Source: Pedobacter sp.
GTDB taxonomy: Bacteria > Desulfobacterota > Desulfuromonadia > Desulfuromonadales > Syntrophotaleaceae
Assembly: GCA_050253415.1 (NCBI GenBank)
Contig: JBFWJC010000001.1
Location: 1,352,679 to 1,416,678, forward strand
Direction: 5' to 3'
DNA: 64,000 nucleotides
Of the stretch, positions 6,225 to 61,977 are shown piece by piece. The notes beneath the pieces are model-generated. The model was not told the DNA's origin. It searched no databases and saw nothing but the letters and a program-made list of their open reading frames with translations. The position numbers were made by a program, and so were the translations under genes. Within the stretch, counting starts at the first letter, position 1; each line of letters opens with the position of its first letter.

Positions 6225-7415
6225 TCAATGGAAAAGCCCGGACTGCCAGGATCTTGCCTGCCAGCCTTTATTCTTCAGTTCAAAGAGCAGGGTTCCATGT
6301 AGATCGGTGCGCCACAGGGGCAATCCTTTTTCCGCAACGATGTCCATGGTTTCTCTGTGGGGGAAGCCGAAGGAATTGTTGCGACCGAGGCTGGTGAAAA
6401 CGATGGTGGGCGCAAAATATTCAAGCAGAAGATCGATATTACTGTAGCGGCTGCCGTGGTGTGGAAGTTTCAAAAGGGTTACCGGGCGCTTTGGCATGGT
6501 ACCCAATAGCTGGCGAACCCCGATGCTTTCCAGATCTCCGGTCAGTAGTACCCCCTCATGTTTGTGACGGGCGTAAAAAACGAGTGACCGGTCATTGATG
6601 CTGGCCATTGTCTGGGGTGGAACAAATAGAGCAATTTCATCGGTGCGCGTGTCTTCAACGGTTGACCATCCTGTCTTAAAGGTACGCACCGGGATGTGTC
6701 GGCTTGAAATTTGTTCGCGCAAGGGTTGCCATAGTTCGTTTTCCGGCATGCCACACCAGACCTCTTGCACCGCAAAATGTTTTACGATATGCAGCAATCC
6801 GTTTCGGTGATCGGGATGATCGTGGCTCAGAACCACGGCCGTAAGTTGCTTGATGCCGAGACGTCCCAATGCGGGTGCCACCAGCCGTTCGCCGGTATCG
6901 AAGGTTCCTTGTGCCATGCCACCACCGTCGATGAGATAGTGATGACCTCTGGCGTCCGAAACCAGCAGGGCATCGCCCTGACCGACACTCAAGGCCATGA
7001 CCCGTAGTTGCTGAGGGCGTGGAGCCGGCCATAACCATAAGGTTGCAAGTAAAGTCAAAAGCACAGGGATGTGCCACCTGCGCCAGGGCAGTAGCACGAT
7101 GGCTACCATCAGGGTTATAGCGATCAAAGAGGATAGCGGCAGGTAGATTTGGCGGGGTGTCAGTATTGGCAGCGCCAGCATGTATTCGGATAACTTCAGG
7201 GTTTGGTCAACCATGGTGGCCGTGAAGCGAAAACACAGTGCTGCACCATCGGGCCAAACAGATGCTAAAAGCAACCCGGTCAGTCCAACGGGGATGGCCA
7301 GCCCACCGATCAGCGGAACGGCCCACAGGTTGATTAACGGGCCTGCCGGGGCGAACAGGTGGAAATGCCACAGCACTATGGGGCCGGTTGTGATAGCGGC
7401 GGCCATGGTGACCAG
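6225..7415 (-). pseudogene. comEC: ComEC/Rec2 DNA-uptake channel, 3' part only (5' part replaced by an insertion)
   Basis: End of Competence domain (TTGPIVLWHF...NLWAVP) and MBL domain (VGQGDA, SHDHPDH, LLTGDLE, LPHHGS, FGFPH); sequence turns into AT-rich repeats just upstream of codons LVTMAAA. Confidence 0.9.
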
Positions 7416-7483
7416 GTAAAGAAAATAAAAAATGTCGTGACTAAGATAAAAATGTCGTGACTCGGAGAAGAAAGTTGTTTACT
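7415..7483 (+). mobile_element. Tn7-like transposon end with three adjacent TnsB-binding-site-like repeats
   Basis: AAATAAAAAATGTCGTGACT / AAGATAAAAATGTCGTGACT / CGGAGAAGAAAGTTGTTTACT ending at 7442, 7462, 7483 (20/21 bp period), starting ~8 bp from the comEC breakpoint; terminus reads GGT, not TGT. Confidence 0.72.
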
Positions 7484-7842
7484 GCGTTTGATATTTGGCT
7501 GCGTAACCATTTCCCTTCAAAGCGGGGCATCGGAGGTTTGGTTGCAAGGCCTAATATGCAATTCAATTAGCCCTTATCCACAACTATTGTGCAAAAGTCC
7601 CACGAAAGCACTTCAAGTGAATGGGGGGAATCCTTGATTTTGTGAAGAAAACACCTTTTTGCCTGGTTTTTAGACAAGAGATTTCGTTGCTGAATGTCTT
7701 GGGACTGGCAAAAAGATTTTTCTATGCTTTTATGGGTTGGCTGAGAACGGCGAACCTCAGCTTTCGGAGCAAAGTTGGGGTTCGCTGCATTGATTGCTTG
7801 GTGTCGTATCTGTCCTAGGTGAACTGGGATCTGATTAAAGAC

Positions 7843-9035
7843 TGAGTCTCACCCATAAATTGGACAGGCCAATCTTAGAGATTTCGAGCTTGCGTCATGC
7901 TTTTCCCGGAACTGTACCGACGTTAAATTTCTCAGCGATGAGTGCGGACGAAATCCACTATAGTCCTTTAGTCAAGCCTCTTTATTTTTCTTTGCATCGT
8001 CAAGGGACAAGAACCAATGTGTGTTCAAGCACTCGTCTTGAAAACTGCCATTGAACGACTCTATGAGTGCATTGTCTGTGGGCCTTTCCGGCCTTGAAAA
8101 GTCCAAATTGACGCCGTTTTCGTAGGCCCACTTATCGAGCGCCTTGGAAATAATTTCGGCGCCATTGTCGACCTGAATCTGGTCGGGGCACCGATCTTTG
8201 AACAGCCTGAGGCGCTCCATTACTTTGGCGACATCCTGGCCTTGGATCGCCCGCTCTACCTGAATGGCCAAACATTCGCGACCATAATTATAAGCGACAG
8301 TTAATGCCTGATCCGGCGGCCGTTGAACAGATTATCGGCCACAAAGTCCATTGATCGATCCTGGAGACCTCTGGGCGTTGCATGCGGTGCGCCACACGGC
8401 GCTTTGACCTCTTTTGGCGCAAATTCAATCCCTCTTCTCGGTAAATCCGGTAGATGCGCTTATGATTGACCTGCTAGCCCTTACGTCGCAACAGGATGTG
8501 AATGCGAAGGTACCTGTAACGGACCCGTACCTTGGCGATCTCACGGATGCGCTGTTTAAGAAGTCGGTCGTCCCTTGCCGGTTTGTAGTAGGCCGACCGC
8601 CAGAGTCCCACCACCGCGCAAGCTCGCAGCATACCCACAAGATGAGCGGTATCCAGATTATCGGCCAAGAGTTGCTTCTGGGCTGGCTTTAGAGTTTTTT
8701 TTGAGGACATCCTGGAGCATCTGTTTGTCGAGGATCAAATCTGCCACGAGCTTCTTGAGTTGCCGGTTCTCCTCCTCAAGCTGCTTGAGGCCCTCAATTC
8801 GCTGATACCCAGCCCCTCGTACTTCTTCTTGCAGTTGTGGAAGATGGCATCCGAGATCCCCATCTTGCGACAGACCTTGGCCACTTTCGTGCCGGTTTCG
8901 GCCTGCCGCAGAGCAAACGCGATCTGGTCCTCGGTGAATTTCGTGGTTTTCATGGCAAAAGCCCTCCGTTGTCTGAGAGGTTATTTTGCCCGAATTTTCC
9001 AGTTTTGGCTTGTCCGAATTTTCGGAAGGAGGTCA
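7843..9035 (-). mobile_element. Degenerate IS3-family element (orfA 8953-8735; orfB fragments 8710-7972)
   Basis: MKTTKFTEDQIAFALRQAETG orfA; DNGAE...SRPERPTDNALIESFNG...DECLN integrase core with frameshifts; imperfect IRs TGAGTCTCACCCATAAATTGGACAGGCCAA / TGACCTCCTTCCGAAAATTCGGACAAGCCAA. Confidence 0.88.
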
Positions 9036-9051
9036 CATGTTGACGTGTCCT

Positions 9052-9909
9052 TTACCTTTTGACCTGCACGAGCCTGGCTCTAAGATTAGCGGGAAGTTGC
9101 TCCAGCATTCTGGCTTCTTCTTCATGATAGGTAGCCAGGCGATTACTCAAAAAATCAAAGTTGACCAGATGCCCGTCGAACTCAGGCCCATCTACGCAGG
9201 CGAATTTGGTTTCCCCTCCGACCTCGACGCGGCAACTGCCGCACATGCCGGTACCATCGATTATGAGCGGGTTGAGACTGACGATGGTCTTGATACCGTA
9301 AGGCCGGGTCAACTCCGCAACAGTCCGCATCATCGGAACTGGCCCGATGGCGATGACTGCGTGCGGACGACGTGCAGGATCATCGATAAGATCCTGCAGC
9401 TCCTCGGTAACGAAACCTTTACGACCGAGGCTGCCATCTTCCGTGGTGATCTGAACTTCTCTTGAAAAAGCACTGAGTTCTTCAGCAAGAATGATGTAGG
9501 AGGCCGACCGCCCACCAATGATGGTTGTGACTTCGTTGCCGGTTTCTTGGAGAGCTTTGGCCGTCGGGTAAAGAACCGCCGTGCCGAGACCGCCCCCGAT
9601 GCAGGCAACCCGCCCCCAGGACTTAATTTCCGTCGGTTGGCCGAGAGGACCGGCGACATCCTTGAGATCCAGACCGGCGGGTATACTCACGATTTTCTGG
9701 GAAGTCAGGCCTACAGCCTGAATAAAAAGGGTTATGGTACCCTCTTTGGTACTGGCATCGCCTATCGTCAGAGGAATGCGTTCGCCTCCCTCCTCGACAC
9801 GGACGATAACGAACTGCCCTGGCTTGCGGGCCTTGGCGATTCGGGGGGCACGAATGACCATACGATGGACGTTCGGCGCTAAAATGTCGTTTCTAATTAC
9901 TTCGAACAT
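9052..9909 (-). CDS. nfnA: NfnA/SudB-type FAD/NAD-binding [2Fe-2S] subunit (PyrK-like)
   Basis: KPGQFVIVR...GERIPLTI, GPLG, IGGGLG, IGPVPMM, DGTGMCGSCRV...FACVDGPEFDGH. Confidence 0.9.
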   Translation of the reverse strand: MFEVIRNDILAPNVHRMVIRAPRIAKARKPGQFVIVRVEEGGERIPLTIGDASTKEGTITLFIQAVGLTSQKIVSIPAGLDLKDVAGPLGQPTEIKSWGRVACIGGGLGTAVLYPTAKALQETGNEVTTIIGGRSASYIILAEELSAFSREVQITTEDGSLGRKGFVTEELQDLIDDPARRPHAVIAIGPVPMMRTVAELTRPYGIKTIVSLNPLIIDGTGMCGSCRVEVGGETKFACVDGPEFDGHLVNFDFLSNRLATYHEEEARMLEQLPANLRARLVQVKR

Positions 9910-10007
9910 ATGGTCTCCGAGTTTATTTTATTTAACTTTTGATACCTTCTTTAATTTCTTTTTTTGCCACCATATCATTAGGAAAAGGACTTTTACACGG
10001 CAACGCT

Positions 10008-10175
10008 CTACTCAAATATCTTTGGAGCATTTATAGGAAAATGTTTTCGCCAGACCGCATAATGCTCTTCGTGTATTTTGTATTCTTCACATATTTCCGA
10101 CAGAGGCCGGCCCGATAACCCCTCAAGCACAATGATTGTTTTTGTCAGAGGATCAATCACTTTTGAAGGAATCAT
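10008..10175 (-). CDS. Small HTH protein (IS3 orfA-like HTH), paralog of the N-terminus of ORF 32816-33292
   Basis: KTIIVLEGLSGRPLSEICEEYKI...WRKHF aligns with KAIIVLEYLPGRTVAEICQEYDV...WRKTF. Confidence 0.55.
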   Translation of the reverse strand: MIPSKVIDPLTKTIIVLEGLSGRPLSEICEEYKIHEEHYAVWRKHFPINAPKIFE

Positions 10176-10270
10176 TACTATCTCCCTGCCTTTCACTGGA
10201 CGTGGTGAGCCGCACCTTGTCCATGCTGGCAGGGACGTGGGTGCGGTTCACCAGATTTAATTTACAGTCA

Positions 10271-10850
10271 TTACAGTTCTCTGTTGATGGTACCTTCCCA
10301 GGTGGAAACCTTGTCCTGCTCACCGGCTTCTTCCGGAGATACCCACTTGGTGGTAAAGGTCTTGACCTGGGTGTAGAACTTGGCCCCGTCGCGACCAAGG
10401 CAGTCGAGATCGCCGAAGAAAGAACGCTTGTGGCCGGAGAAGGGGAAGAATGTTAGGGGTACCGGGTTGCCGACGTTGGTACCGACGAAGTAGTCCTCTT
10501 CGCAACCTTCTACAACTGCTTCGCGACCGTCGAGGAACAATTCGGCCCTTACTCAACACCCTTGTTGATCATGTCGATGACAAAATTCTTCTGACCGGCG
10601 CTTACCAGGAAGCCAAGCTGGGTACCTTCTCAGTAAGCCGGACCCATCTTCAACTGCTCGGCATACTTCTTCAGCAGGGCCACGAATTCGTCGGCGATGC
10701 ACTCTTCCACAACCACCACGGGCAGAGCCATGCAGCGTTGACCGGCACATCCGAAGGCCGAGTTTATAATCCGACAGGCAGACCAGTCGAGAGCTGCGTC
10801 ACGCAAAACCGGGGCGTGGTTCTTGGCTTGGGAAAGGACCTGTACCCGCC
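10271..10850 (-). pseudogene. Malonate-semialdehyde dehydrogenase remnant (deleted, frameshifted copy of 31185-32732)
   Basis: QAKNHAPVLRDAALDWSA...FGCAGQRCMALP and the identical C-terminus DKVSTWEGTINREL; internal stops and deletions. Confidence 0.9.
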
Positions 10851-11135
10851 ACAGGCCACCAGAAAATCGCACTTCTCTTCTTTAAGCATCTGCAGACCGG
10901 TGTCAACATGGGACAGATCGCCCTTGGAATTCACGCCGTTAAACAGAACCTTGACACCGCTATCCACAAGAGACGTGACCACCGGATCGATGGCGCCGAC
11001 CTCTGCCAGCACCTTGTCGATCAGCAACAGGACCTTGCGCGCTCCGAGACGCTTGGCCTCCGGTCCGGCATTAGCAGCAGCCTCTTCGCCGAAATGAATG
11101 ATGGCCGGTGTGCAAAACGGACGGGATGGAATCAT
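10850..11135 (-). pseudogene. Fe-ADH 5' remnant (copy of 29882-31045)
   Basis: MIPSRPFCTPAIIHFGEEAAANAGPEAKRLGARK...FLVACGG, then joins the mmsA remnant. Confidence 0.9.
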
Positions 11136-11279
11136 TGTTGTGTCTCCTTAATCTGTGTCTATTTGACCTTCCCAGGACGGCCAGTTGCACAACGGTATAA
11201 AAATCTGCGCACAATGGGTCTCTCTTTTGGCTTAATTTTTACAACAGCAGCCTTGCCAAATCAATCAAAAATACAAATA

Positions 11280-11289
11280 TTTGGCCAAT
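11280..11289 (-). promoter_or_regulatory. Regulon operator (ATTGGCCAAA) upstream of the Fe-ADH remnant
   Basis: Motif match, 15 nt before TTGATT; homologous to the 29726 promoter. Confidence 0.65.
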
Positions 11290-11464
11290 TTTTTGTGCAC
11301 AGAAATCAATGTGTTTTCTTTCTGGAAAATTTGCCGTTATCAGAGGCCTGTGGGGGTGTTCCGGGGACACAGTCCGGCATTTTTCTCTTCGCAATGCGAA
11401 TATGGAGGACGTTGGCATTGTCCCTCCTGTTCATAACTTCGCCTTCTAGTTACGACCTCAGCAA

Positions 11465-11605
11465 CTCCTTGCTCGGGGTATCCGCTGGCAATATTACCGG
11501 CAACAATCTCTTCCCAGTCCTCCAATACAAAATGATTGAGAACGCAATGCTTCGAGCGGGCTTTGATAAAAACGGCGAAACAGATGTACTAATAGGTTTT
11601 CTTGT
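11465..11605 (-). pseudogene. CMD/AhpD-family remnant (copy of 29208-29531)
   Basis: Fragments YICFAV...KARSK and LEDWEEIVAGNIA with an internal deletion. Confidence 0.8.
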
Positions 11606-11780
11606 TGGGTCTCGGATAATTCCATCAGCAGAAAAAGCTTCCCGTTATTCCTTGCTCGGGTATGTTCTTTGGCATTCTCTATGGCGAAATCTGAAGGAGC
11701 CTGATATGACGATTCGATTGCACGCAAATGCCACAACAACCCCGAAAATTCCAAGATTGATCTGTCTGAATTCTGGGTGA
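11603..11780 (+). mobile_element. IS481-family left-end remnant
   Basis: GAAGGAG RBS, then MTIRLHANATTTPKI (ATG 11706), a typical IS481 transposase N-terminus, truncated. Confidence 0.7.
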
Positions 11781-11802
11781 GGCTCACAATCAGCCACGCA
11801 AT

Positions 11803-11838
11803 AAAAAAACGGTTCTCCTTGCAGGGAGGGCCGTTTTT
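11803..11838. terminator. Bidirectional intrinsic terminator
   Basis: AAAAAAACGGTTCTCC TTGCAG GGAGGGCCGTTTTT. Confidence 0.7.
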
Positions 11839-11948
11839 CTACGCAGGCTTCTGTGCCGAAATTGATCGCAGTTCAGTCAGATATTGCCGCCCTGCTGCCC
11901 GATTTGAGCCAATACGCCGCATTACACTGCAAAGTTGTGAATCAAAAA

Positions 11949-13271
11949 CTACTGCAGGCATTGCAACAGCCCCATGGCCCACTGACAGGCACCGCACGGC
12001 TCGTTGTTTGAAAAACAGTCCAGCATGAAGTTTTCCTCCTGCACCAAATTGCAGGGCGCCCCCCAGCAATTAGTGCAGTAGGGATAGTCGAATGCCAGCA
12101 CGTTGCGACGAAAGGTTTTGAACTCCTCGCCGTTCCAGATTTCCAGAAGCGGCCGCTCGCCCAGATTGCCGAATTCCTTAACTTTGATCAGCCGATCCCA
12201 GTCACTGATGTAACAACGGTACTGATGCCAGAGGTAATAGCAAGGATGGACGCCGCCATACCAGGAGATAAAAGCCGAACCGCCGGTGACGAAATCGCAC
12301 TTGCGTTCGGCCAAGGGAATGATCGCCGGCAGTTTGAGTTCGATTCCCATTTCATTTGCAACCCGCTGCGCCTCTTCGTAAACATCCTCCACTTCGGTCT
12401 GCAGCTTAATGTTCCGGCTGAGTATTTGCTTGACGTCAATAAAGATCTCCCGCCTGCGGGCCTCTGGTCGCATCTGGTTGACCAGTTTGTTGACACGGGA
12501 AACCCGCGGATCATGCTGCTGCTCCCTCCTCTGAGGGGGATAGTTGTAGAGGTGGATATCCAGCCCCATATCCGCCAGACGGTCCTTCCATTCGTCGAGC
12601 TGCGCCACCGCTGCTTCGCTGGCATTGTGGTAGGTAATCTGCTTCACGGACCCCGAATCGTAGGGCAAGGCCTGTGAAACGATGCAGAAATCGGCGCCGC
12701 GCTGCGCCACCCAGCGTACTGTGTCTGGTAGCTGACGAAAATTTTCGCGCATGGTGACGAACTCAACGCCGACTTTCAGGCGACTGCCCGATTGGGTTCG
12801 ACGGGCTTCAGCCAACACCGCAAAGGCCCGCTCCATATCGCTGATGTTCTCGCCTCCCCGAACCTTGTTGAAGGTTTCTGGTTTTACCCCGTCCACCGAC
12901 AGACAGATGCGGTCAAGCCCAGCGGCCACCAACTTGCGGGCAATGACCTGATTGAGAAGCAGGCCGTTGGACTGAAAACCGATCCAGGCGTCATCGGGCA
13001 TCGCTTGGCGGGCCCTCGCAATCCATTCGAGCAGGTGCGGATGCATGAGCGGCTCTCCGATCCCGTTAAGGACTAGTGATTCTAGTTGGGGAAAGGCCGG
13101 TTCCATTGCCGAAAAGAGTTCCTGGCTGAGGTCGCCGTCGGTCACCTGACTGTCCTGTGACTGTTTGACGCACATGGGACAACGCAGATTGCAGTGGGTG
13201 GTGGTCTCGACGAACAATTTGCTTGGGCAATTCCGCAACGCCGGTTCGGTCTCTGTTCCTTCTGTGTTCAT
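11949..13271 (-). CDS. Radical SAM/SPASM protein (putative metalloenzyme maturase type)
   Basis: CNLRCPMC, GIGEPL, SPASM Cys pattern (KCDF...VHPCYYLWH...CTNC...PC...PCGACQW); start uncertain, placed at MNTEG. Confidence 0.88.
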   Translation of the reverse strand: MNTEGTETEPALRNCPSKLFVETTTHCNLRCPMCVKQSQDSQVTDGDLSQELFSAMEPAFPQLESLVLNGIGEPLMHPHLLEWIARARQAMPDDAWIGFQSNGLLLNQVIARKLVAAGLDRICLSVDGVKPETFNKVRGGENISDMERAFAVLAEARRTQSGSRLKVGVEFVTMRENFRQLPDTVRWVAQRGADFCIVSQALPYDSGSVKQITYHNASEAAVAQLDEWKDRLADMGLDIHLYNYPPQRREQQHDPRVSRVNKLVNQMRPEARRREIFIDVKQILSRNIKLQTEVEDVYEEAQRVANEMGIELKLPAIIPLAERKCDFVTGGSAFISWYGGVHPCYYLWHQYRCYISDWDRLIKVKEFGNLGERPLLEIWNGEEFKTFRRNVLAFDYPYCTNCWGAPCNLVQEENFMLDCFSNNEPCGACQWAMGLLQCLQ

Positions 13272-13297
13272 GGTGTTAAGCATATGCATATTTCCCA

Positions 13298-13307
13298 TTT
13301 GGCCAAA
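13298..13307. promoter_or_regulatory. Regulon operator, perfect palindrome TTTGGCCAAA
   Basis: ATTTGGCCAAAT just upstream of the radical SAM gene. Confidence 0.6.
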
Positions 13308-13416
13308 TTGCCAAAGACGCATAAAAAAGAAACGTTATCTGTCGATAAATTAAAAAAGGGCGCCCCCTTTTGCACTTTGGATTCCAACACCGACTTAATG
13401 CATCCATAAAAATTCA

Positions 13417-13695
13417 AATCTATCCACCAAACAAAAGCTGCGGTAAAGCAACGCCGCCATAAATGGTTTGCCGCTAAGGTACTTTTCGCCCAGCTCAAAG
13501 ATACCATCCAGCAGTCCCAATTAGGCCGAATGCCCTGGCCAATTTTCTAGGCAGTCTTCTGATTGCCCCCCCCCAGCCACTTGGCCAAGAATACCGCAGA
13601 GACGCCCTTGCTGGAGTTGATTATGAAATACATGGCCAGAAGCCAGGTCCGGAGCGGCAATTTTGTGTTATTCATGGGTGTTTTGGTCGTTACTG
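13417..13695 (-). mobile_element. Internally deleted IS1595-family remnant related to 45510-46586
   Basis: ATCTATCCACCAAACAAA end and VTTKTPM..TKLPLRTWLLAMYF.INSSKGVS segment shared with the intact copy. Confidence 0.85.
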
Positions 13696-13810
13696 ACAGA
13701 TGTCTAGAAACCGTGGAGACATCTGCACCAATCATTTTGCTCAATTTGCAAACGCAGCACTCTTGCTTTTCGAGCTCTTCGGCAATAAACAAGCGCGCCT
13801 GATGGGCCAT
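13696..13810 (-). pseudogene. ArsR/SmtB-family HTH fragment
   Basis: AHQARLFIAEELEKQECCVCKLSKMIGADVSTVSRHLSV fused to the IS remnant. Confidence 0.75.
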
Positions 13811-13992
13811 GGCCTAGAACAAACGGCGTGAGCCTCATGACGGTTTCTTTTACTTTGTTCCATATATTTGGTAATATAGATAAAAAACCGGAGCTGGTCA
13901 ATCACATTTGAATTATGGATATTCCGGTTTATCTCTTGCCTATAACTAAAGCCCCTTTACATGAGGGGTAAAACGATTTTCAAGGAGAAGTT

Positions 13993-15180
13993 ATGCAAGT
14001 CCCTTCAAGCGAATTGAAACAGCGAATGCATCGTTTCCGCCTGCGAATGGACCGCTCCGATCCCGATTGGAAGGCCGCTGTCATTTTTGGCAAGGTCAAC
14101 CAGTATTATTTCACGGGCACCATGCAGGACGGACTGTTGTGGATTCCGCGGGACGGCGAGGCGGTCTACTGGGTGCGCAAGAGTATCGAGCGGGCCCAGG
14201 ACGAATCGTTGTTCTCCCGTATCGAGCCTATGAACAGCTTTCGCGACGTGGCGGCGACAATCGATGTTCTGCCAGACAATCTACATCTCGAGTGCGAACT
14301 GGTTTCTCTGGGCCTGTTGCGGCGCTTTCAGAAGTACTTTCCGGCCAATGACATTCGGCCGGCCGATGGCGCCCTAGCGGCCGTCCGGGCAGTCAAAAGC
14401 CCCTATGAGTTGGACCTTATGCAGCGTGCTGGCGAGGTGCACCGGCGCATCCTTGAGGAGCGGGTCCCGACCCTGCTCGAAGAAGGTATGAGTGAAGTGG
14501 ATCTGGCGGGGCGGCTTTACCCGGTGATGATCGAAGAGGGGCATCACGGCGTGGCGCGGTTTGCCATGTTTCAGGCGGAGGTGGCCTTGGGGCATATCTG
14601 CTTCGGCGAAAGTTCTCTTTACCCAAGCTCCTTCGACGGTCCGGGCGGCAATTACGGCCTGCATCCGGCGGTGCCGATTCTCGGCAGCCGTCAGCACAGG
14701 CTGGCCAAGGGCGACCTGGTGTTCATCGATATCGCCTGCGGTTTGGACGGTTATCATACGGACAAAACCCAGACCTATCTGTTTGCAGGGACACTCGATG
14801 CCGCGGCGACGGCTGTGCATCGCCAGTGCGTGGCGATTCAGGATCAAATCGCCGAAAGGCTCCGGCCGGGCGCCATCCCTACCCAGATATACCAAGAAAT
14901 CATGACCTCGCTAGACGACGAGTTCCTGGTGAATTTCATGGGCTACGGTTCCCGTCCGGCGCGGTTCCTCGGCCACGGCATCGGTCTGCAGGTGGACGAA
15001 TCGCCGGTTATCGCCAAAGGATTTGACGAGCCCCTTGAAGAGGGCATGGTGCTGGCCTTGGAGCCGAAAAAGGGTATTGAAGGGGTCGGACTGGTCGGCA
15101 TCGAAAACACCTTCATCGTCACCGCCGAAGGGGGGCGATGCATTACTGGTGCCCATCCGGGACTGATGCCAGTATATTGA
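13993..15180 (+). CDS. M24 (Xaa-Pro) peptidase family protein
   Basis: RAVKSPYE, FIDIACGLDGYHTDKT, FLGHGIGLQVDE, ALEPK, VGIENT; AAGGAG RBS. Confidence 0.92.
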   Translation: MQVPSSELKQRMHRFRLRMDRSDPDWKAAVIFGKVNQYYFTGTMQDGLLWIPRDGEAVYWVRKSIERAQDESLFSRIEPMNSFRDVAATIDVLPDNLHLECELVSLGLLRRFQKYFPANDIRPADGALAAVRAVKSPYELDLMQRAGEVHRRILEERVPTLLEEGMSEVDLAGRLYPVMIEEGHHGVARFAMFQAEVALGHICFGESSLYPSSFDGPGGNYGLHPAVPILGSRQHRLAKGDLVFIDIACGLDGYHTDKTQTYLFAGTLDAAATAVHRQCVAIQDQIAERLRPGAIPTQIYQEIMTSLDDEFLVNFMGYGSRPARFLGHGIGLQVDESPVIAKGFDEPLEEGMVLALEPKKGIEGVGLVGIENTFIVTAEGGRCITGAHPGLMPVY

Positions 15181-15303
15181 AACTTAGTAGTAAGTATTTG
15201 TTTTTTAAACGAATCTATTCACGAAAAAAGTGATCCGATGATAAGTCCAGACAATCATGGCTGAAAATCCGATCCGACAAGGAACGGCGGGGAATGACAG
15301 GCA

Positions 15304-15570
15304 TTAGATTTTAGGTTCCGCATGATCCCTGACCTGTTTATGGAAAAGTTTTAGTTTCTTTTTCTGCCAATTATTCAGGGTCTCTCCGGGAGTTCTATGC
15401 CCCAACGTTCGCTGAGGAATGTGGTGGCTGTATAGATACCCATAACGCAACAATGTCTGTTTTAAATTTTCGGCGGAATCGAACCGGGTTGTTGACAAAA
15501 CCTCGCTGATGCGGCCATTGAATTGCTCCACCATGCAGTTGGACTGAGGGTGGTCTGGCGGGATGAGGTA
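15304..15570 (-). mobile_element. IS481-family transposase C-terminal remnant
   Basis: VEQFNGRISEVL..TRFDSAENLKQTLLRY..LYSHHIPQRTLGHRTP. Confidence 0.75.
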
Positions 15571-52599: not shown

Positions 52600-52900
52600 G
52601 GGCGTTTTGGATTGCCAGTAGGACGGACAGTTTTAACGCCATCTACACTGACGACATAAACACCGATTGAGGCAAAAGTGCTACGGTGTGGACCGTCGTT
52701 ACTTCCAAACCGGGTGGGCATTGAGCAACGGCCAGCCATCGTCAAATCACGCAGTCGCTTCGGCGATTGGGAGGGCGGCTTGATGGTAGGTCCGGCAATC
52801 CGGTGCTCCTCGCTTCCCATGTGGAACGTAAAAAAACGCTACCAGAAGGTCTCGCTGCTTAAGAATTACAGGGCTGAAACTTTCAATACCGCAGTGATCC
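52600..52900 (+). mobile_element. IS30 transposase remnant
   Basis: LPNRVGIEQRPAIVKSRSRFGDWEG fragment with frameshifted flanks. Confidence 0.7.
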
Positions 52901-54018: not shown

Positions 54019-54612
54019 ATGAATACATGTAATTTCAGAGAATTAGGTGACGTCTGCCTGGATATTTTGACCATCAAGCCGCAGGCGCCGGCCACAAAGC
54101 GTTTGCCACCCACATACCTGTTTGTGGCCGTCGATCATGCCAGTCGCTGGGCTTACGGGGAGTTGCACCAAAGCAGGTCGGCCCTTTTTGTTGACTTTCT
54201 TGAAAATCTGGCCAAAAAAGCACCATTCAGAATACATACGGTTTTCACGACCTACGACCGACCCTTCCATGAACTTTTCGTCAACGGCAGAGCGACCATC
54301 AATGACGTAAACGAAACATTCAACCAAGCCTGTGTAAGACTCGGCATTGTTCATCGATCAACCCCGCCTTGGAGGCCAGTTGATGCCGGTGTGTTGGAGC
54401 GATTCCATCGCAGCATTGGGGAAGGCTTGAAAACGGCAGGAGGGATTTCACCCAAGGATTTTGCGCCCACCTTGCTGCGCTACCTTGAGCAATACAATGA
54501 GCACCTTCCCCAGCTAGTTTTGGGCCACATAACGCCCATTCAGGCTGTAAGGAGAGGTATTGCCTCTGCAACAAATGTGGGGGACAACAACCCTCTTAGC
54601 ATAAAAAGGTGA
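54019..54612 (+). CDS. IS481-like integrase-core-only ORF, catalytically degenerate
   Basis: YLFVAVDHASRWAY, PFRIHTVFT, ERFHRSI, YNEHLPQ..LGHITP; TDNG motif replaced by TTYD; AAGGAG RBS before MNTCNF. Confidence 0.65.
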   Translation: MNTCNFRELGDVCLDILTIKPQAPATKRLPPTYLFVAVDHASRWAYGELHQSRSALFVDFLENLAKKAPFRIHTVFTTYDRPFHELFVNGRATINDVNETFNQACVRLGIVHRSTPPWRPVDAGVLERFHRSIGEGLKTAGGISPKDFAPTLLRYLEQYNEHLPQLVLGHITPIQAVRRGIASATNVGDNNPLSIKR

Positions 54613-54616
54613 AACC

Positions 54617-54745
54617 ATGCGAAGTAATCGACCGCAAAAAAACTCGGTGATCCGGGTAGAACCGATTCGATCGCTGGACGCCATCGAACGCATCAAGGCC
54701 AATCTGGCCCCGCGCCCGCGCGGGCGGCCACTGCCGCCCCACTGA
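54617..54745 (+). pseudogene. Tyrosine recombinase N-terminal fragment
   Basis: MRSNRPQKNSVIRVEPIRSLDAIERIKANL, typical VEPIR integrase N-terminus, then stop. Confidence 0.6.
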
Positions 54746-55009
54746 AGGAGGAAGTATGAAAAAGAAAGATGTCGGCAAAAACAGTCGCAGCAGGGCGACG
54801 ATCAAAGCGTCAAGAGCGCAGGTTACAAACGGTCACAAGGCCCCGCCGGCGATCAAGCGCTCGGCGTGTACACTGACTCCCCAACAAAAGACGACGTGGT
54901 TGTTGTGCCTGTGGGGTGGCGAGTTCAAGTTTTCTATTGAAGAAGCGGATTACCCTTTGGCACGGCCGGGGAAAAGGACCTTGTTCTGAATCTCAACAAA
55001 CTCTCCAAT

Positions 55010-55320
55010 GCTAGCATCCGCAAAGCGGCGCAAGAGTGGCGCGCGAGGTTCCGGAAGGCCTGGGTCGACGCCGAGGTAAAGACTATTTCGGCTGGATTCA
55101 GGTGCGTGACTTCGGCAGGTTGGGTCGCGTCAGTCACATCCCTAGTCCTGAAGTCGACCGGGAAATTCACGGGATGTTCATCGGCGAAGAGGCTCTGTAC
55201 TACGGATCTGGGCTGGCGACCCGAGGTGGTCGAGATTCGGAAGCAATACCCGCTGTCCCTGAATCTTGCCTTGACAGTGGCAGAGGCGCTGGGCATCGCG
55301 CATCCCAGAGGTTTCCTGGA
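55010..55320 (+). pseudogene. Degenerate second tnsA
   Basis: EGLGRRRGKDYFGWIQVRDF...REIH, frameshift, WRPEVVEIRKQYPL...AEALGIAHP parallels the intact TnsA N-terminus. Confidence 0.75.
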
Positions 55321-55562
55321 AAATTGCGGTGTCAGGGTGCTTGGGGACGGTCCAAGTGAAGTTTGATGATGTCTGGCAAGCTTCCATGGTCTTATCCCGG
55401 AGGGAATGGATATAAGTCAGGGGCCTGGGGCCTATGGATGATAAAGCAGCAATATAAAAGCCGTTATTGCGATTTTCGCAATTCCAAAACGGAAGTCCTT
55501 TCATCAAATAGCGAATGAGAAGAAAGAAAAAGCCATTAGCAGGTTCGGGAAAGGAGGACAGT

Positions 55563-56375
55563 ATGTCTCCACGAGCGCGCATTTCAGACAAAGGCAGAGC
55601 CCGTAAGGGGCGAGGCAAGGGCCATGGCAGAAATTACGAGCCGTGGATCAAAGTTGGCGACTACCCCGCAAATGTTGGATTCGGGGACAGGGTAAACGGT
55701 TTAATCAGCGGTCGTCCCACCCATACACTGTCGAGGTTGGAATTTGGTGAATATTTAACGTTGGAGAGGTGGCAGGATGTTGTGGATATCCGTGAAAACT
55801 ATCCTCTGCCCCCCGGGGAAACAAAAATCGTGGCAGACAGGCTTGGTTTGCGACATCCCGTTGAAAGAACAACCAAACAGCCCAAGACCTTAACCATCGA
55901 CCTTTACCTAGATATACTTGATAATGAAGGTTTTTTAATGCACGAGGCCTGGGATCTTAAAAAGAAAGCGCATCTGGCGCTGGCCTCGTATATGCGCCAA
56001 ATCGATATTAAGGAGGCGTATCTTGCCATTTACGACACCCCCTACCATATTGCTACTGAAAATGAAATCGACCCGATCCTCATCAAGAATTATTTTCTAT
56101 TACGGCGATATACCGGTGAATACTTTTCTGCCCAGCATTTGGCCCAGATCAACCATCTGGAGAAACTCCTTTGGCAAGAATTAAAAGATTCCAGGGAACC
56201 CGCTGCGCATGTCTGTACCCGTATAGATATCCAGCAGGGCTATCGTCAGGGTACGTGCCTGAGCACGGTTTACTACCTGATTTATCATCGATACTGGCAG
56301 GTTGATCTCTATGAGGAAATCAGGCCGGACGAAGGGCCTTTGAAGCTCTATCGTTTAAAAGCCGTAGAGGATTGA
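55563..56375 (+). CDS. tnsA: Tn7-like TnsA endonuclease
   Basis: GRGKGHGRNYEPWIKV.D, RPTHTLSRLE, DIRENYPL, LGLRHP, LTID; AAGGAGG RBS. Confidence 0.92.
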   Translation: MSPRARISDKGRARKGRGKGHGRNYEPWIKVGDYPANVGFGDRVNGLISGRPTHTLSRLEFGEYLTLERWQDVVDIRENYPLPPGETKIVADRLGLRHPVERTTKQPKTLTIDLYLDILDNEGFLMHEAWDLKKKAHLALASYMRQIDIKEAYLAIYDTPYHIATENEIDPILIKNYFLLRRYTGEYFSAQHLAQINHLEKLLWQELKDSREPAAHVCTRIDIQQGYRQGTCLSTVYYLIYHRYWQVDLYEEIRPDEGPLKLYRLKAVED

Positions 56376-56397: not shown

Positions 56398-58578
56398 ATG
56401 AATATCGCGATTGGCAATATCCTGGAGTGGCTCGATCCGGAGTTTCCGGACGAGGACCGGGCCCCATCTTCAGAAGAAACGATCTCCCGTGAGCGCGTTT
56501 TGTGGGGTGATGCAGATGTAATTGTATCCATCCCCATGTCGAGGCCGCACAAGGGGGCAGGTGATGGTATGCCGGTGGTGCACCTGAGGAGCAAACTGGA
56601 GCGTGCCCTAGAGGAAAATCGACTGTGTATCAATCGTGATTTTGATCCTTATGGTCGCTTGTTAATTCTCCCCTCCGAATACAAAGAGAAACACGCTGAG
56701 CATCAGAAAAAAGCATGGAACGCGATCCAAGACATCGCGAAAAAGGAACCCGGAATTTACGACCCGGGGACTCGCGGTCGCTTGGTACGACAGGCAGCAC
56801 ATAAGCATAAGGTGTCCCGCCCCTACATTTATAAGCAATTACGGCGATATTGGGTGGCCGGGAATATACTCGAGGCTCTGCTTCCTGATTTCTTCCACTG
56901 CGGGCACATCCCGCAGGGGCAGGAGTTTAAACATTCGAAGAATTCATTGGAAACCAAAATTAAGATTGTCAAGGGAATTAAAAAATTCGGGGGCGGTGGA
57001 AAGACAGGCCAGAACTTAAATGATGACATTTGCGAAGAGTATTTTTCAGAGAAAGATGTTTTAACGGAAAGACGACTGATATATCCGACGGCACCATCTG
57101 TCCATGTCACAAATTACTATAGGAAGCTATTAAGAGATCACGATCTCAAGTGGTATATAATCAATCAATTCGGAATCAATAAATTCAAGAAGCTTTTTAG
57201 ACCGTTATTAAAAACATCCCAAACCTATGTGTCCGGTCCTGCGGATACTTTTCAAATTGATCATACTGTAGCAGATATTTATTTGGTTAATAAAGACGAT
57301 CGCTTATTAATAATAGGCCGTCCTATGGTCTATATCGTTATCGATGTTTTCTCCCGCTTAATTACGGGAATCTTTGTCGGATTAGAAGGTCCGAGCTGGG
57401 AAGGCGGCGCCAGTCGGGCTTTGCTCAATGCATTTTCCCCGAAGTTGCCCTTTTTGCAGGAACTCGGAATGGATGAATTGTTTTGGGATGTCTTGGGGGA
57501 AAGGCTGGACGAAAGTACTTGGCCGGCTGACTGTATACCCGCCAGGGTTTTGGGCGATTTTGAAATCGTTTCGCAAAAAGCTGATGCACCGATAATGCCG
57601 CTCGGCATTACTTTTTCCAATACGCCTTCGCGCCAACCTTGGGCGAAAGGGATTGTCGAGGCGCAATTCCGCGTATCTAAAGATTACTTCCTGGATTGGG
57701 CACCTGGAGCGGTCGATGAGTGGAGGAAGGAGGTGGAGGGCCGAGATTATAAATATGATGCCATTTTCACTTTGGAGGAATTTACAAAAATACTTTTACT
57801 GTACGTTCTTCTTTGGAATGATCACCTTCTTCCAAAATACAAGCTGGACAAGGCAATGATCCGGGACCATGTGCAACCTAGACCGAAAGAGCTTTGGCGG
57901 TGGGGGTGGGCCAATCTCTGCGGCCTTCCTAATCAGCGTAGTAGGGAGGTGTTGGAGCTTGCTTTGCTGCCACGGAAGACGGGGCGGGTAACCCAGTTTG
58001 GGCTTGAATTTGGGAAAAAAACTTACGTGCCTCAATGTGAGGATGCCGAGGAAATTCTCCTTCGGGCTTCCTACTTTAATCCATATGAAGTGGAGGTTTC
58101 CTACGATTCACGGTCTGCCGAGTGCGTTCTCATGCATGACCCCGAAAAGCGGCGGGTAGTGCGATGCCTGCTGAATCTTCCAAAGGAACGTAGTTGTGTC
58201 GGGGTCAACGAAGAGGAAACCCGGGTTCTCGATGCAGCTAAAAGTAAACTGATTAACGCTGCCGCTGCGGGGGAACGGCAAAGCCGGGTGGATAAGAGGC
58301 AGGTTGGGAGGCGGATAACCGAAGAAGCTATGGCGGCCCACGAGGAGGCACGGATACTGGGGCCGGATACGACAAAGCGAAGGCGTGGCGATGTAGCCAA
58401 AAATCGTGCCGACGAGGTACGGACCCGGGCCAGTGAAAAACATGGTGAACAGGGCGAACAGCAAGCTAGGCCGGATATTCCCGATGCAAAAGATGAAGAT
58501 AAGAAGTCCGGGGATGCAGGGATTTTCGATCTCATGTACGGGAAGGGGGCGGATCATGAAGAACCTCGAAAGCATTGA
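56398..58578 (+). CDS. tnsB: Tn7-like TnsB DDE transposase
   Basis: LRRYW, GP...FQIDHTVADIYLV, GRP.VYIVIDVFSRLITG, GPSW, KGIVE..F. Confidence 0.93.
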   Translation: MNIAIGNILEWLDPEFPDEDRAPSSEETISRERVLWGDADVIVSIPMSRPHKGAGDGMPVVHLRSKLERALEENRLCINRDFDPYGRLLILPSEYKEKHAEHQKKAWNAIQDIAKKEPGIYDPGTRGRLVRQAAHKHKVSRPYIYKQLRRYWVAGNILEALLPDFFHCGHIPQGQEFKHSKNSLETKIKIVKGIKKFGGGGKTGQNLNDDICEEYFSEKDVLTERRLIYPTAPSVHVTNYYRKLLRDHDLKWYIINQFGINKFKKLFRPLLKTSQTYVSGPADTFQIDHTVADIYLVNKDDRLLIIGRPMVYIVIDVFSRLITGIFVGLEGPSWEGGASRALLNAFSPKLPFLQELGMDELFWDVLGERLDESTWPADCIPARVLGDFEIVSQKADAPIMPLGITFSNTPSRQPWAKGIVEAQFRVSKDYFLDWAPGAVDEWRKEVEGRDYKYDAIFTLEEFTKILLLYVLLWNDHLLPKYKLDKAMIRDHVQPRPKELWRWGWANLCGLPNQRSREVLELALLPRKTGRVTQFGLEFGKKTYVPQCEDAEEILLRASYFNPYEVEVSYDSRSAECVLMHDPEKRRVVRCLLNLPKERSCVGVNEEETRVLDAAKSKLINAAAAGERQSRVDKRQVGRRITEEAMAAHEEARILGPDTTKRRRGDVAKNRADEVRTRASEKHGEQGEQQARPDIPDAKDEDKKSGDAGIFDLMYGKGADHEEPRKH

Positions 58579-60067
58579 CGCGGCTGAAACTTTCGGATCC
58601 CGGGGACCCATTTTCGGCAATAAGGTTCCGGCAAGGTATTTTCCATCGGCGGATCCCATGTTCAGGCACAATCCGCTTATCGAAGCGTTACCGCCAATTA
58701 TGGCGGTCGATGAGTTTACCAAAGCGGCCAGTTGGTACCCGGCTTATGATGAAGAGGAAAGGAAGAAGCCGTTAGAGTACCGCCTTATCGCGAGCGAAAG
58801 GATTAAAACACTCGTGGAGCCCCTGCCGCCATTTGTGAGGTTTTATTATTCATTGTGTGGTCAGCTCCGCTTTGGATATTTGAGCCGAAACCCTCCACGA
58901 CCGGCTTATAAAAAACAGTTGGAGGAAAGTTTTCCCGATAAAGAGTTCTCTGAGGACCCGTACCGCATGCCCGTCTTGCAGAATGCGGCATCCGGGTCAT
59001 GTGTCCTCGGTATCAGCGGTGTCGGCAAGACCACTTTAATCGAAACGGTCCTGAAGCTGATTCCTCAAGTCATTATTCACAGTGAATATGAAAACGAGCA
59101 ATTTACACAGCAGCAACTTGTCTGGGCATATGTGTGTTGCTTCCGCGGGAAAACTTTGAAAAATATCGCTTTCCAGTTTTTGTATCAGGTAGAGCTGTTA
59201 CTTGGCTACCCATGTTTTAGCAATTGTCATGGAAAAAGGTGGGCTGAAAAAGATATTTTGATGGAAATGGCAAGGGTTGCCCGGACGGTAAAGCTGGGAG
59301 CCCTTGTAGTTGATGAAGTGCAAAATTTGCAATACGGAGAGTCCAAAACAGGGCAACAGAGGAGGGGGTATTCCTATCCCCCATCGCTGTTGACGGCTTT
59401 GGTAACATTTTCGAACCTATTTAGGGTGCCAATCGTTTTTGTCGGAACACCGGAAACCGGGCCTCTCATAGGGAAAAGCATGCCTTTATCAAGGAGGGCA
59501 ACGCAAGGTGGCAAAATAGAGGTAGATCGTTTGCGCCCAGGACGGGTATGGGATCAATTTTATGAAACCTTATCCCGTTATCAATTTCAAAAAAAACCGA
59601 TGCAGGATAATGATGAAATCAAAAAGGCCTTTTATGAAGAGACCCAAGGGATCATAGGTGCCCTGGTGAGCCTGTTTACGGCTGTGCAATGGGAAGCCAT
59701 CTATTCAGGGGTGGAAGCGATATCCGAAAAACTAATCCGTGAGGTGGCGAGAACCCATTTAGGACCGTTGTATCCCTGGATCAGGCTTATAAAGGCCGGG
59801 AAAGAAAAATTTTTTTCAACGCCACAGGTATTGGAGTCCGATCTGTCCCATGAAGCTTTTGTTGCGGCCAGTAAAAGAAACACTAGATCCGCAAAAGACC
59901 AAAATGGGGGCGAACGAGCGAATGAAAGGGGAAAAAGTAATTCGGCCGGTCGGGAGAATGTGCTCACTGCAAGTAAAGATGCTCGCGCAAAAAAAAGGAA
60001 AAAAGCGAAGGAAAATTACGAAAAATTAAAAAGAAGGGGGCTGATTGCGGACGGAGAACGGGAATAA
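58556..60067 (+). CDS. tnsC: Tn7-like TnsC AAA+ ATPase
   Basis: NPLIEALPP, Walker A GISGVGKT, Walker B LVVDEVQ, VPIVFVGT. Confidence 0.94.
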   Translation: MKNLESIDAAETFGSRGPIFGNKVPARYFPSADPMFRHNPLIEALPPIMAVDEFTKAASWYPAYDEEERKKPLEYRLIASERIKTLVEPLPPFVRFYYSLCGQLRFGYLSRNPPRPAYKKQLEESFPDKEFSEDPYRMPVLQNAASGSCVLGISGVGKTTLIETVLKLIPQVIIHSEYENEQFTQQQLVWAYVCCFRGKTLKNIAFQFLYQVELLLGYPCFSNCHGKRWAEKDILMEMARVARTVKLGALVVDEVQNLQYGESKTGQQRRGYSYPPSLLTALVTFSNLFRVPIVFVGTPETGPLIGKSMPLSRRATQGGKIEVDRLRPGRVWDQFYETLSRYQFQKKPMQDNDEIKKAFYEETQGIIGALVSLFTAVQWEAIYSGVEAISEKLIREVARTHLGPLYPWIRLIKAGKEKFFSTPQVLESDLSHEAFVAASKRNTRSAKDQNGGERANERGKSNSAGRENVLTASKDARAKKRKKAKENYEKLKRRGLIADGERE

Positions 60068-60093
60068 AACAGAAGGTAGGAGGTGTTTAGGTT

Positions 60094-61977
60094 ATGTTGA
60101 TTTTTTTCCCGAGGCTTCTTCCCGATGAATTATTTTTCAGTGTCTGCGGTCGATATCACAGAGATCTAGATGCTGGTAATGACCAAAGGACTTCACGCGA
60201 GTTATTCGGTCTCCCTATTGCCAACTTCGGCTGGGATTTCCCAAGCCGGCTTCAGGCCTTTGTTGATCAACTGCCGGGAGATCCTCCTTTAACCGCTGAA
60301 AAACTGATTGAAGAAAATACCATGTTTCCTCTTTATCGACCATTTATTACCGAAGAGAGGGCAACCAGGGTTGTTTCTGGAATGGTTGGTACAACTGGCG
60401 CTCATCGATACAACCGATGTCTTGTCGGTATGATCAATGGAAAATTTCCCCTTGTAAAATATTTAAGGTGTTGCCCCGATTGCATTGCGGAGGATGAGAG
60501 GACCTACAGGACATCCTATTGGCACAGAAGCCATCAAGTGCACGGTGTCTTTGTCTGCCACAAACATGGAAGCCCATTGCTTGAAACCAAAGTTTCTACC
60601 TTACATAAAACTGGAGAGAGCCTTTTTAAGCCCCTGAATAAGGAATTAATCAATAAACCACTGTTTTCCGAGAAATTCGAAAAGACAGAATATGAAAATC
60701 TAAAAAAATTGTCGGACTCGATATGTTGGATACTAAATAACCCGATAAAAATAATTGGGAGAAAAAACTTATGCAAACGTTATAAAAGATTCTTATTGGA
60801 CAATAATCTTTTCTTGCGAAGAAGCAGGATATCCATAGCAAAAATAATGGATAATATTCAATGTGTGTTTGGAGAAAAAATACTCAAATTGTTGTGTTGT
60901 AATTTTGAAAAAAATTTAAAATATCCTTGGATTTCCAATCTTTTTTTTAACAATAACTTTGGACCCAATCCCCTCTATCATCTCCTGCTAATTCAGTCTT
61001 TAAATCTAGACCTTAAAGAGGTTTTTCTGGCTGATTACACGGATGAAACGGTTTCTTTTGCCGATGGATTCCCTTTTGGCAAAGGTCCCTGGCCTTGTCT
61101 GAATCCGGCCTCAAATCATTATAAAAAGAATGTTGTTATTGATTGTAGAATTGAAAGAAATACAGGCGATGGTAGGCCGATCGCTATCTTTACCTGCGAC
61201 TGCGGATATGCTTATGAAAGAATAGGTCCTGATAAAGCGAAAAAAGACCGATTTGAAAAATATCGCGTAGTTCGTTACGGTGAGGTCTTCGAAGACGAAC
61301 TTTTAAGGTTGGTTGAAGGTGAAGGGAAAAAGCATAAAGAGGTCGCAGAAATTCTCGGTGTTCATAAAAGCTATGTAGGAAACATGCTCAAAAAAATAAA
61401 GGAAAGGCCATCGAAAGAGGAACAGTTGAAGAAAGAACTTGCCGAATTAGAACAGAAGCGTAATGAGTGGAGTAGGGCCATCAAAAAAAATCCGTCCCTT
61501 GGACGCACTGAGTTGGCCTGCAAATATCCTGGACTAGTGTCTTATTTTTACAGGAAAGACAGGGATTGGTTTAAAAATAATCAGCCGCCGATAAAATCGA
61601 CATCTGCCCATACCGTCGACTGGAAATTAAGAGATGAACAATTGTCATCGGGAATCAATGATGCAGTCGCTAATATAAAAGGAATGCTTCCTTTAGCCCG
61701 TGCCTCGATTTCCAGGATCGCCCAACTTTTAAATTCTGAGACTATTTTGAAATCAAACAGGCGTCTTAACAAACTTCCAAAAACAAAAAAGTTATTAGAG
61801 GAAGCTTCAGAAAGCGTGGACGATTTCCAGATCAGGAGGTTGTATTTTTTCGCAAATGAATTAAAAAAGAATGGTGATCTAAGTCGTTTCAGGCTTTTGC
61901 GGGCCTCTGGCCTTGAATACAATAAATGTTCAAAACGTGTTCAGGAAGTAATTGATCGTTTACTTAATGGAGGATGA
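60094..61977 (+). CDS. tnsD: TnsD (TniQ-family) target-site selector
   Basis: FFP..LPDEL..S...RY, CCPDC, WHRSHQ..GV.VC.KH, PWPCLN...F.C.CG, VDW..RD. Confidence 0.93.
   Translation: MLIFFPRLLPDELFFSVCGRYHRDLDAGNDQRTSRELFGLPIANFGWDFPSRLQAFVDQLPGDPPLTAEKLIEENTMFPLYRPFITEERATRVVSGMVGTTGAHRYNRCLVGMINGKFPLVKYLRCCPDCIAEDERTYRTSYWHRSHQVHGVFVCHKHGSPLLETKVSTLHKTGESLFKPLNKELINKPLFSEKFEKTEYENLKKLSDSICWILNNPIKIIGRKNLCKRYKRFLLDNNLFLRRSRISIAKIMDNIQCVFGEKILKLLCCNFEKNLKYPWISNLFFNNNFGPNPLYHLLLIQSLNLDLKEVFLADYTDETVSFADGFPFGKGPWPCLNPASNHYKKNVVIDCRIERNTGDGRPIAIFTCDCGYAYERIGPDKAKKDRFEKYRVVRYGEVFEDELLRLVEGEGKKHKEVAEILGVHKSYVGNMLKKIKERPSKEEQLKKELAELEQKRNEWSRAIKKNPSLGRTELACKYPGLVSYFYRKDRDWFKNNQPPIKSTSAHTVDWKLRDEQLSSGINDAVANIKGMLPLARASISRIAQLLNSETILKSNRRLNKLPKTKKLLEEASESVDDFQIRRLYFFANELKKNGDLSRFRLLRASGLEYNKCSKRVQEVIDRLLNGG

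Follow-up and report, generated by a model that had tools for sequence, protein, structure and literature searches.

The window analysed here is a 64,000-nucleotide stretch of contig JBFWJC010000001.1 (positions 1,352,679 to 1,416,678) from a Pedobacter sp. genome placed in the Syntrophotaleaceae, order Desulfuromonadales. It carries a very large Tn7-like transposon that interrupts the competence gene comEC and continues past the window end. We favor the reading, with a probability of about 0.8, that the element belongs to a Tn7-like lineage with a fixed attachment site in comEC, probably found through its TnsD protein. The reading is carried by the anatomy of the element, a target-site duplication, an empty site in a congener, reuse of the same base by other elements, the occurrence of filled and empty alleles, and open transposition genes with catalytic motifs. 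The first-pass annotation of the window had described an element of more than 56 kb in comEC; there is indeed one very large Tn7-like element, but its size is corrected to 61,752 bp. Its suggestion that comEC is a new TnsD target gains from an insertion at the same base in a sister species and a scar in another family, while the part of TnsD as selector keeps the rank of a prediction.

The window holds aspS, hisS and a GGDEF response regulator gene, next to which comes a comEC fragment deprived of its 5' part, as the first-pass annotation had seen. When the whole genome is searched for the Competence family, only two places match: the 3' part, inside the window, and the 5' part, about 5 kb past the window end. 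The inverted repeat sites, the comEC 5' half and the CCAGG duplication that the first-pass annotation proposed to look for downstream are all present there. Positions past the window end are given below as window-equivalent coordinates (L121 position + 63322, on contig C1 of this genome, G000). The features of the insertion site are:

6225..7416, minus strand: 3' half of comEC, 393-396 codons, matching Competence profile positions 161-268 and Lactamase_B (Pfam); flanks the R end
7412..7416: left copy of the 5-bp target-site duplication, CCAGG; present once in the intact comEC of congener G003
7417..7483, plus strand: R-type end, 10-nt terminus TAAAGAAAAT (7417-7426) followed by three direct TnsB-type sites at 7428, 7448 and 7469
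Window-equivalent 69028-69168 (C1:1421706-1421846), minus strand: L-type end, terminus TGATTTTTGC read inward, with four spaced inverted sites
Window-equivalent 69169-69173 (C1:1421847-1421851): right copy of CCAGG
Window-equivalent 69169-70327, minus strand: 5' half of comEC, with DUF4131 and Competence profile positions 1-188

The empty site is found in G003, whose comEC is intact and codes for 803 amino acids. Alignment of the junctions reveals a single CCTGG in G003 where G000 has two copies flanking the element, which therefore extends from 7417 to window-equivalent 69168 and is bordered by a duplication of 5 bp; the sixth base (T) is also shared, but its assignment is ambiguous. The left flank and duplication read GGTGA/CCAGG and the element begins with TAAAG at 7417, so that the GGT first taken for its terminus is flanking sequence. 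The insertion cuts ComEC in the middle of its channel domain and, because the genome has no second comEC, the host should no longer take up DNA through ComEC. At its R end the element starts with TAAAG (7417-7421), five bases that are almost those following the duplication in the empty site, GAAAG (G000:C1:1421852-1421856), and contigs of the empty allele therefore align as far as 7421. This likeness may be due to chance or be the trace of end repair or conversion; the corresponding terminus in the sister species G006, TGGAC, has no likeness to the target bases GAAAG.

The three repeats with a period of 20 and 21 bp noticed at the breakpoint in the first-pass annotation are two copies of AAAAATGTCGTGACT, at 7428 and 7448, and AGAAAGTTGTTTACT at 7469. 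The exact 14-mer of the R-end sites occurs twice in the 4.1-Mb genome, both times at the R end. At up to 3 mismatches the window has 10 matches for a chance mean of 5.55, a number reached in 4 of 100 shuffles; the signal therefore resides in the cluster and not in single sites. The L-end sites lie at inward offsets 11, 38, 80 and 125. The ends are thus asymmetric, with three sites within 67 bp at R and four inverted sites over 141 bp at L, and sites of both ends are of one type. All four ends checked (R and L of G000 and G006) have a 10-nt terminus followed by the first site, the four termini having only T(G) in common. They are not of the TGT...ACA kind: G000 has TAAAG.../...AATCA and G006 TGG and TGA, TGT being found only in the scar of a more distant genome, G043 (see below). 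Non-TGT ends are on record for some Tn7-like elements (PMC9881144). A template scan of the whole element found no second site cluster near tnsA or elsewhere inside it, in agreement with the first-pass annotation, and no pair of ends closely flanks tnsABCD. A separate end pair near tnsA was considered and rejected, the interior of the element having only scattered single matches. With up to 3 mismatches allowed, these number about 26, where a 600-kb background would predict about 8.

The same base of comEC is interrupted in other members of the order. In G006, a sister species of the same genus, comEC is broken at the identical base and the end repeats are of the same type, with 10-nt termini (TGGACCCGCT and TGAAAACGGT) unlike those of G000. 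Its TnsB is 62% identical to that of G000 and its two tandem TnsDs 44% and 37%. The tandem tnsD genes occupy G006:C1:39358-43170, the first with one in-frame TGA; the extra TnsD may serve a second targeting pathway or be a decaying duplicate. The two halves of the G001 comEC each run to a contig end, stopping exactly at CCTGGT, as expected of an assembly branch at a polymorphic insertion. No contig of the element was found in the G001 assembly (78% complete), and a search of G001-G005 with the R end gave two weak 70% matches, in G001 only and elsewhere in the query.

A scar of the same kind is present in G043, a 99%-complete genome from another family of the order, where comEC is reduced to one 56-codon fragment. 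As in G000, 43 nt separate the start of this fragment, which falls on the same codon, from CTGTGGCATTTCCAC; the fragment abuts TGTTGGCGAG, which has a TGT terminus, and two sites of the same type (G043:C3, L122 ~10230-10620). The locus is syntenic, being adjoined by the GGDEF regulator and hisS. G043 has its own tnsABC-tniQ-tnsD behind glmS with a different site motif and tnsA about 870 bp from the end; these genes are therefore not the source of the comEC scar. The piece of comEC kept in G043 corresponds exactly to the stretch proposed below to bind TnsD. The insertions of G000 and G006 and the scar of G043 thus share one base and one orientation; the metagenome junctions agree with this and the G001 break is compatible.

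Across all 6 pairs formed by G000, G006, G001 and G003, the ratio of nonsynonymous to synonymous substitution rates (dN/dS) of either comEC half lies at 0.19-0.25. Between G000 and G006 it is 0.20 and 0.215 at dS 0.40-0.46, and the frames of both comEC halves are open. Values of about 0.2 indicate that comEC was under selection for most of the divergence; since neutral decay would be expected had an insertion preceded the species split, they argue that the insertions are recent and separate. Public metagenome contigs aligned on window positions 6000-10000 complete this picture. The empty allele is present in X2, X3 and X4, whose contigs pass from the comEC 3' flank directly into the 5' flank, and the filled junction is bridged by contigs in X2, X3 and X6. 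One X4 contig carries the R end with 0 differences over 7417-9303 joined to an equally long comEC flank of less than 90% similarity. The coexistence of filled and empty alleles and the identical R end beside a diverged flank support recent mobility of the element. A survey of 233 genomes of the order for split comEC gave 236 matches; among the 150 listed, full-length comEC is found in at least 140 other genomes. Further split comEC candidates in G088, G064 and G048 were rejected, since the matches stop at contig ends or read straight through the site, and that in G098 is a weak match with stops. Six of the 13 genomes lacking a comEC match were checked; G039, G120 and G157 have no Competence match.

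The transposition genes lie about 48 kb downstream of the R end on the plus strand, as given in the first-pass annotation, the tnsA start being 48,098 bp from 7417 and the L end 7,191 bp beyond tnsD:

55515..56375, plus strand: tnsA, 286 amino acids; PF08721 3.9e-9, PF08722 3.9e-4 (under its cut-off)
56398..58578, plus strand: tnsB, 726 amino acids, DDE transposase; 4.8e-60 to the Tn7 TnsB chain 7pik_A
58406..60067 (longest open reading frame (ORF); likely start ATG 58556), plus strand: tnsC; AAA_22 1.3e-12, TniB 1.8e-5
60094..61977, plus strand: tnsD, 627 amino acids; PF15978 5.4e-73, PF06527 1.7e-16; proposed comEC selector

All four frames are open and appear intact. TnsA belongs by family match to the TnsA-type endonucleases, PF08721 scoring above its cut-off. 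In TnsB the residues D, D and E align in the conserved motifs ID.T, ..D and GIVE, following the residue numbering of Tn7 TnsB. TnsB gives no Pfam or NCBIfam match at E up to 0.01 despite its strong hit to 7pik_A, implying that profile-based transposon surveys could miss this lineage. TnsC, the AAA+ regulator, has a Walker A motif GISGVGKT and a Walker B motif LVVDE. TnsD matches the Tn7 TnsD chain 8glu_X (1.6e-10), is present in a single copy in the genome and is full length, with the carboxyl-terminal PF15978 region typical of protein-guided selectors.

A possible binding place of TnsD is suggested by comEC conservation. In Tn7, the DNA bound by TnsD is a conserved piece of coding sequence some 25-55 bp to the right-end side of the insertion point. 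The corresponding stretch here is predicted to be:

~7327-7387, ~30-90 nt from the junction on the R-end side: proposed TnsD-binding stretch, encoding ...GPIVLWHFHLFAPAG...

Counted over seven intact comEC genes, windows of 30 nt at +30 to +90 hold 14-16 invariant bases (gene mean 6.6, maximum 19), and this conserved stretch encodes P(I/L)VLWHFH..APAGL. The peak fits the Tn7 rule. In the proposed mechanism, TnsD would bind, about 30-90 bp away from the insertion point and on its R-end side, the conserved coding sequence (...LWHFH...APAG...), and TnsC would then be recruited. TnsA and TnsB would excise the element at its repeat-bearing ends and join it in one orientation with the 5-bp duplication CCAGG, the whole 61,752 bp moving as one cut-and-paste unit served by TnsA, TnsB, TnsC and TnsD.

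The specificity for comEC looks like the property of a small derived TnsD clade. The nearest TnsD loci are in Pelobacter, Geobacter, Geomonas and Desulfuromonadales assemblies, and comEC is intact in four genomes of the order whose TnsD homologues are 27-34% identical. Among 73 loci of TnsD homologues in species-representative genomes, glmS is found upstream in 12. A ComEC-like ORF, searched up to 10 kb on each side with a hidden Markov model of 7 ComECs of the order, is found in none of the 73; this is a weak test which misses the known positive L033 (43% identity), because its element ends lie beyond the flanks searched.

Several observations weigh against a dedicated, TnsD-read site in comEC. 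The instances are few and all from one bacterial order, the assemblies of G006 (90 contigs, 84% complete) and G001 (170 contigs, 78% complete) are drafts, and metagenome contigs may be chimeric. A second, weaker conservation peak lies at -120 to -90, on the opposite side of the site, and conservation alone therefore does not settle which flank is bound. Among 5.8 billion proteins, two relatives of this TnsD exceed 40% identity (P0002, 45%, and P0004, 43%), the rest reaching 33% at most; a metagenome scan for close relatives gave 15 loci, none above 36% identity and mostly with amino-terminal matches. The R terminus begins with TA where the other three ends have TG and the G043 scar TGT. Finally, tnsA usually lies near the right end of Tn7-like elements, and the 48 kb between R end and tnsA are atypical.

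This distance is best considered with the cargo. The first-pass annotation had placed catabolic and defence genes between the R end and tnsA, and dehydrogenases, a hydrogenase and a cyclic-oligonucleotide-based antiphage signaling system (CBASS) are found there. Compared to the G006 element, this region is organized as follows:

7417..7776, plus strand: R-end backbone, with 76-90% identity to its G006 counterpart, roughly as for the chromosomal flanks
7777..52180: cargo block near-identical to G006 (7777-15741, 99.94%, 5 mismatches in 7,965 bp; 20480-52180, 99.79%, 31.7 kb), with 15742-20479 outside the comparison as G006 contigs break at IS30 copies
47246..51711, minus strand: type II CBASS operon within the block, with CD-NTase, Cap2 (E1-E2), Cap3 (JAB) and SAVED-HNH endonuclease effector (Pfam, NCBIfam, PADLOC)
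52181..55514: backbone from the block to tnsA, with an IS30 transposase fragment (52678-53148), an IS481-like remnant (53779-54612) and small ORFs; no TnsB-type site cluster

Identity to G006 is 80-95% from 52.2 to 54.0 kb and about 65% after ~54000, including the tns genes. The 44-kb block is near-identical while the comEC flanks have a dS of about 0.4; it therefore moved between the elements of the two species very recently, pointing to an exchange of cargo between resident elements. Either recombination within a shared backbone or stacking followed by fusion would explain it. The left boundary of the block is about 45 bp outside an end of insertion sequence (IS) IS3 type at ~7820, and its right boundary at ~52180 is abrupt.

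The 62-kb unit could also be a fusion of two elements stacked in one comEC site, a less probable alternative. The newer element would have given the R end and the left 47 kb, and the older one tnsABCD together with the L end and the right-hand cargo; later losses would have removed the inner ends and one tns set. On this view comEC would remain the attachment site, although the unit need not have come in as a single piece. Tn7-like elements are known to stack in a single site. The remote tnsA with the IS30 and IS481 remnants just upstream of it would be accounted for, as would the identity mosaic with G006 (R end 76-90%, block 99.8-99.9%, then 80-95%, tns about 65%, L side none) and the R ends of the two elements being far more similar than their L ends. 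However, no inner end remnants were found, the internal site matches being scattered and never clustered, the R- and L-end sites are of one type, and the G006 element has the same order as G000, block and then tnsABCD, on one contig.

The first-pass annotation suspected from the terminus that the element may now be immobile. The TAAAG start of the R end, in contrast to the TG that begins both L ends, the R end of G006 and the G043 scar, and the many IS copies in the element could be understood as signs of a relic. We nevertheless judge it improbable: the tnsABCD frames are open and include the DDE and Walker motifs, nothing past T(G) is common to the four termini, and immobility is contradicted by X2 and X3 with filled and empty alleles and by the X4 contig whose unchanged R end stands beside a diverged comEC flank.

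It is more improbable still that the site is chosen by something other than TnsD, namely an unrecognized guide RNA or another protein of the element. A published guide-RNA transposon with a comEC-directed spacer and non-TGT/ACA ends (PMC9881144) offers a precedent, and several small ORFs near tnsD have no family. Against this stand the full-length TnsD with its PF15978 region and the outcome of the searches: no cas domain in the ORFs scanned, no CRISPR-like array in 7417-64000 or L121 1-5900, where the only two short-range repeat families are not array-like, and a Moco riboswitch as sole Rfam hit. Least credible of all, and largely refuted, is a single chance insertion in an ancestor, vertically inherited and with comEC as no dedicated target: the broken-site genomes G000, G006 and G001 are mutually closest by ComEC identity (84% and 80%, against 74% and less), but the low dN/dS and open frames of both halves argue against long decay, the tns genes diverge far more (TnsB 62%, TnsD 44%) than ComEC (84%), the G043 scar is in a different family and at least 140 other genomes of the order have a full-length comEC, and empty and filled alleles occur together in metagenomes.

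The preferred reading, a Tn7-like lineage attached at comEC, leads to comparison with known systems. The element resembles Tn7 in the gene set and order tnsA-B-C-D and the TnsB and TnsD matches, in its asymmetric ends with clustered versus spaced repeats and the 5-bp duplication, and in a fixed orientation that puts the end upstream of tnsA beside the conserved coding stretch. A 32%-identical TnsD relative in G043 is canonically located behind glmS. In contrast to Tn7, which lands behind glmS (attTn7 at the 3' end) and leaves the gene unharmed, the target here is inside a gene that is destroyed. The site motif is of the AAAATGTCGTKWACT type versus AAGTTGGGAAA, the termini are TAA/TGA and not TGT, 48 kb separate R end and tnsA, and there is no tnsE.

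Elements of the Tn6022/AbaR type are Tn7-like and insert at a conserved motif in comM, inactivating a natural-transformation gene (PMC10293859; PMC11441513). In these islands the site is chosen by TnsF, which resembles tyrosine recombinases and works together with a small TniQ on the region of comM coding for Walker B (PMC10293859). A competence gene is disrupted in both cases; here, in place of TnsF and a short TniQ, there is a 627-residue full-length TnsD, no integrase or recombinase domain in the ORFs searched with Pfam (the profiles used included no dedicated TnsF model), and comEC as target. The type I-B1 CRISPR-associated transposon (CAST) of cyanobacteria has a last spacer that targets comEC and ends that are non-TGT/ACA (PMC9881144). 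It shares with the present element its membership of the Tn7 family, the aim at comEC and the unusual ends, but it uses a guide RNA and Cascade in another host phylum, whereas neither cas effectors nor an array or att-spacer are found here and recognition is therefore presumably by protein.

Elements that break comEC in Streptococcus pyogenes and Piscirickettsia salmonis are not Tn7-like and have other integration chemistries, the streptococcal one using a recombinase mechanism. They are, respectively, a macrolide-resistance element and IS elements (PMC12587576; PMC12955456). In the accessible literature searched, subscription-only papers excluded, the type I-B1 CAST is the only Tn7-family link to comEC and there is no TnsD-type comEC site; the terms 'comEC' and 'competence' are absent from the searched supplements of two surveys (PMC8649781, PMC10293859).

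The value of the Tn7 family resides in that each lineage puts large DNA at one predictable site. If TnsD reads conserved comEC, the added attachment site would lie within a gene that most bacteria possess; 10 of 14 control genomes have a match to the Competence family. The Tn7 family would moreover have a third, independent way of disabling natural transformation, strengthening the idea that mobile elements gain from stopping DNA uptake. The loss of competence would presumably benefit the element. More tentatively, and at less than even odds, a small lineage may have evolved a TnsD that homes to the most conserved part of ComEC, shuts off uptake and makes the site a shared docking place for cargo swaps. 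Such targeting would be convergent with TnsF-guided comM and guide-RNA comEC targeting. The uptake shut-off would shield the element from replacement by incoming empty-site DNA, and at an occupied comEC elements of different species would swap the 44-kb bay while keeping their own diverged tns genes. The near-identical 44-kb cargo beside about 65% tns identity is a clear case of cargo moving apart from the transposition core. This decoupling was described already in general terms, with Tn7-like elements of up to 117 kb and identical cargo on diverged cores (PMC8649781).

The cargo block contains an IS3 remnant, radical SAM/SPASM and ArsR genes, an M24 peptidase, IS30-aldehyde:ferredoxin oxidoreductase (AOR)-IS30 and ThiF; also aldehyde and alcohol dehydrogenases, a NuoF-like oxidoreductase and an [FeFe] hydrogenase; and EamA, GntR, IS3, IS1595 and CBASS. 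The CBASS components have high PADLOC scores (cyclase 2.7e-132, E1-E2 2.9e-164, JAB 3.6e-52, effector 8.5e-119). The right-hand cargo, which has no nucleotide similarity to G006, comprises:

61978..64000: L-side cargo within the window, small ORFs without known function; the element continues past the window
63234-63965: 243-amino-acid ORF with a signal-like amino-terminal stretch and no family match
Window-equivalent ~64274-65077: FkbM-type methyltransferase
L121 1935-5193 (window-equivalent 65257-68515): complete HxsD-HxsB-HxsC-HxsA cluster, adjoining the L end

The Hxs cluster combines a His-Xaa-Ser repeat peptide with two radical SAM maturases, HxsB (580 bits) and HxsC (337 bits) both scoring above their cut-offs. 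Within the block, a 26-nt direct repeat of the TTGAATAGATTCTTGAATAGATACTT type is present in three copies at 42900-42992, inside a 101-amino-acid ORF beside an IS3 copy. The two IS30-family copies, at 15671-16636 and 19617-20582, are the only ones in the genome and are 99.35% identical over 1,081 bp. They enclose the gene of a tungsten-type AOR (17091-18977) preceded by a Moco/Tuco (molybdenum/tungsten cofactor) riboswitch (16941-17062, 74 bits), an arrangement that looks like a composite transposon nested in the cargo.

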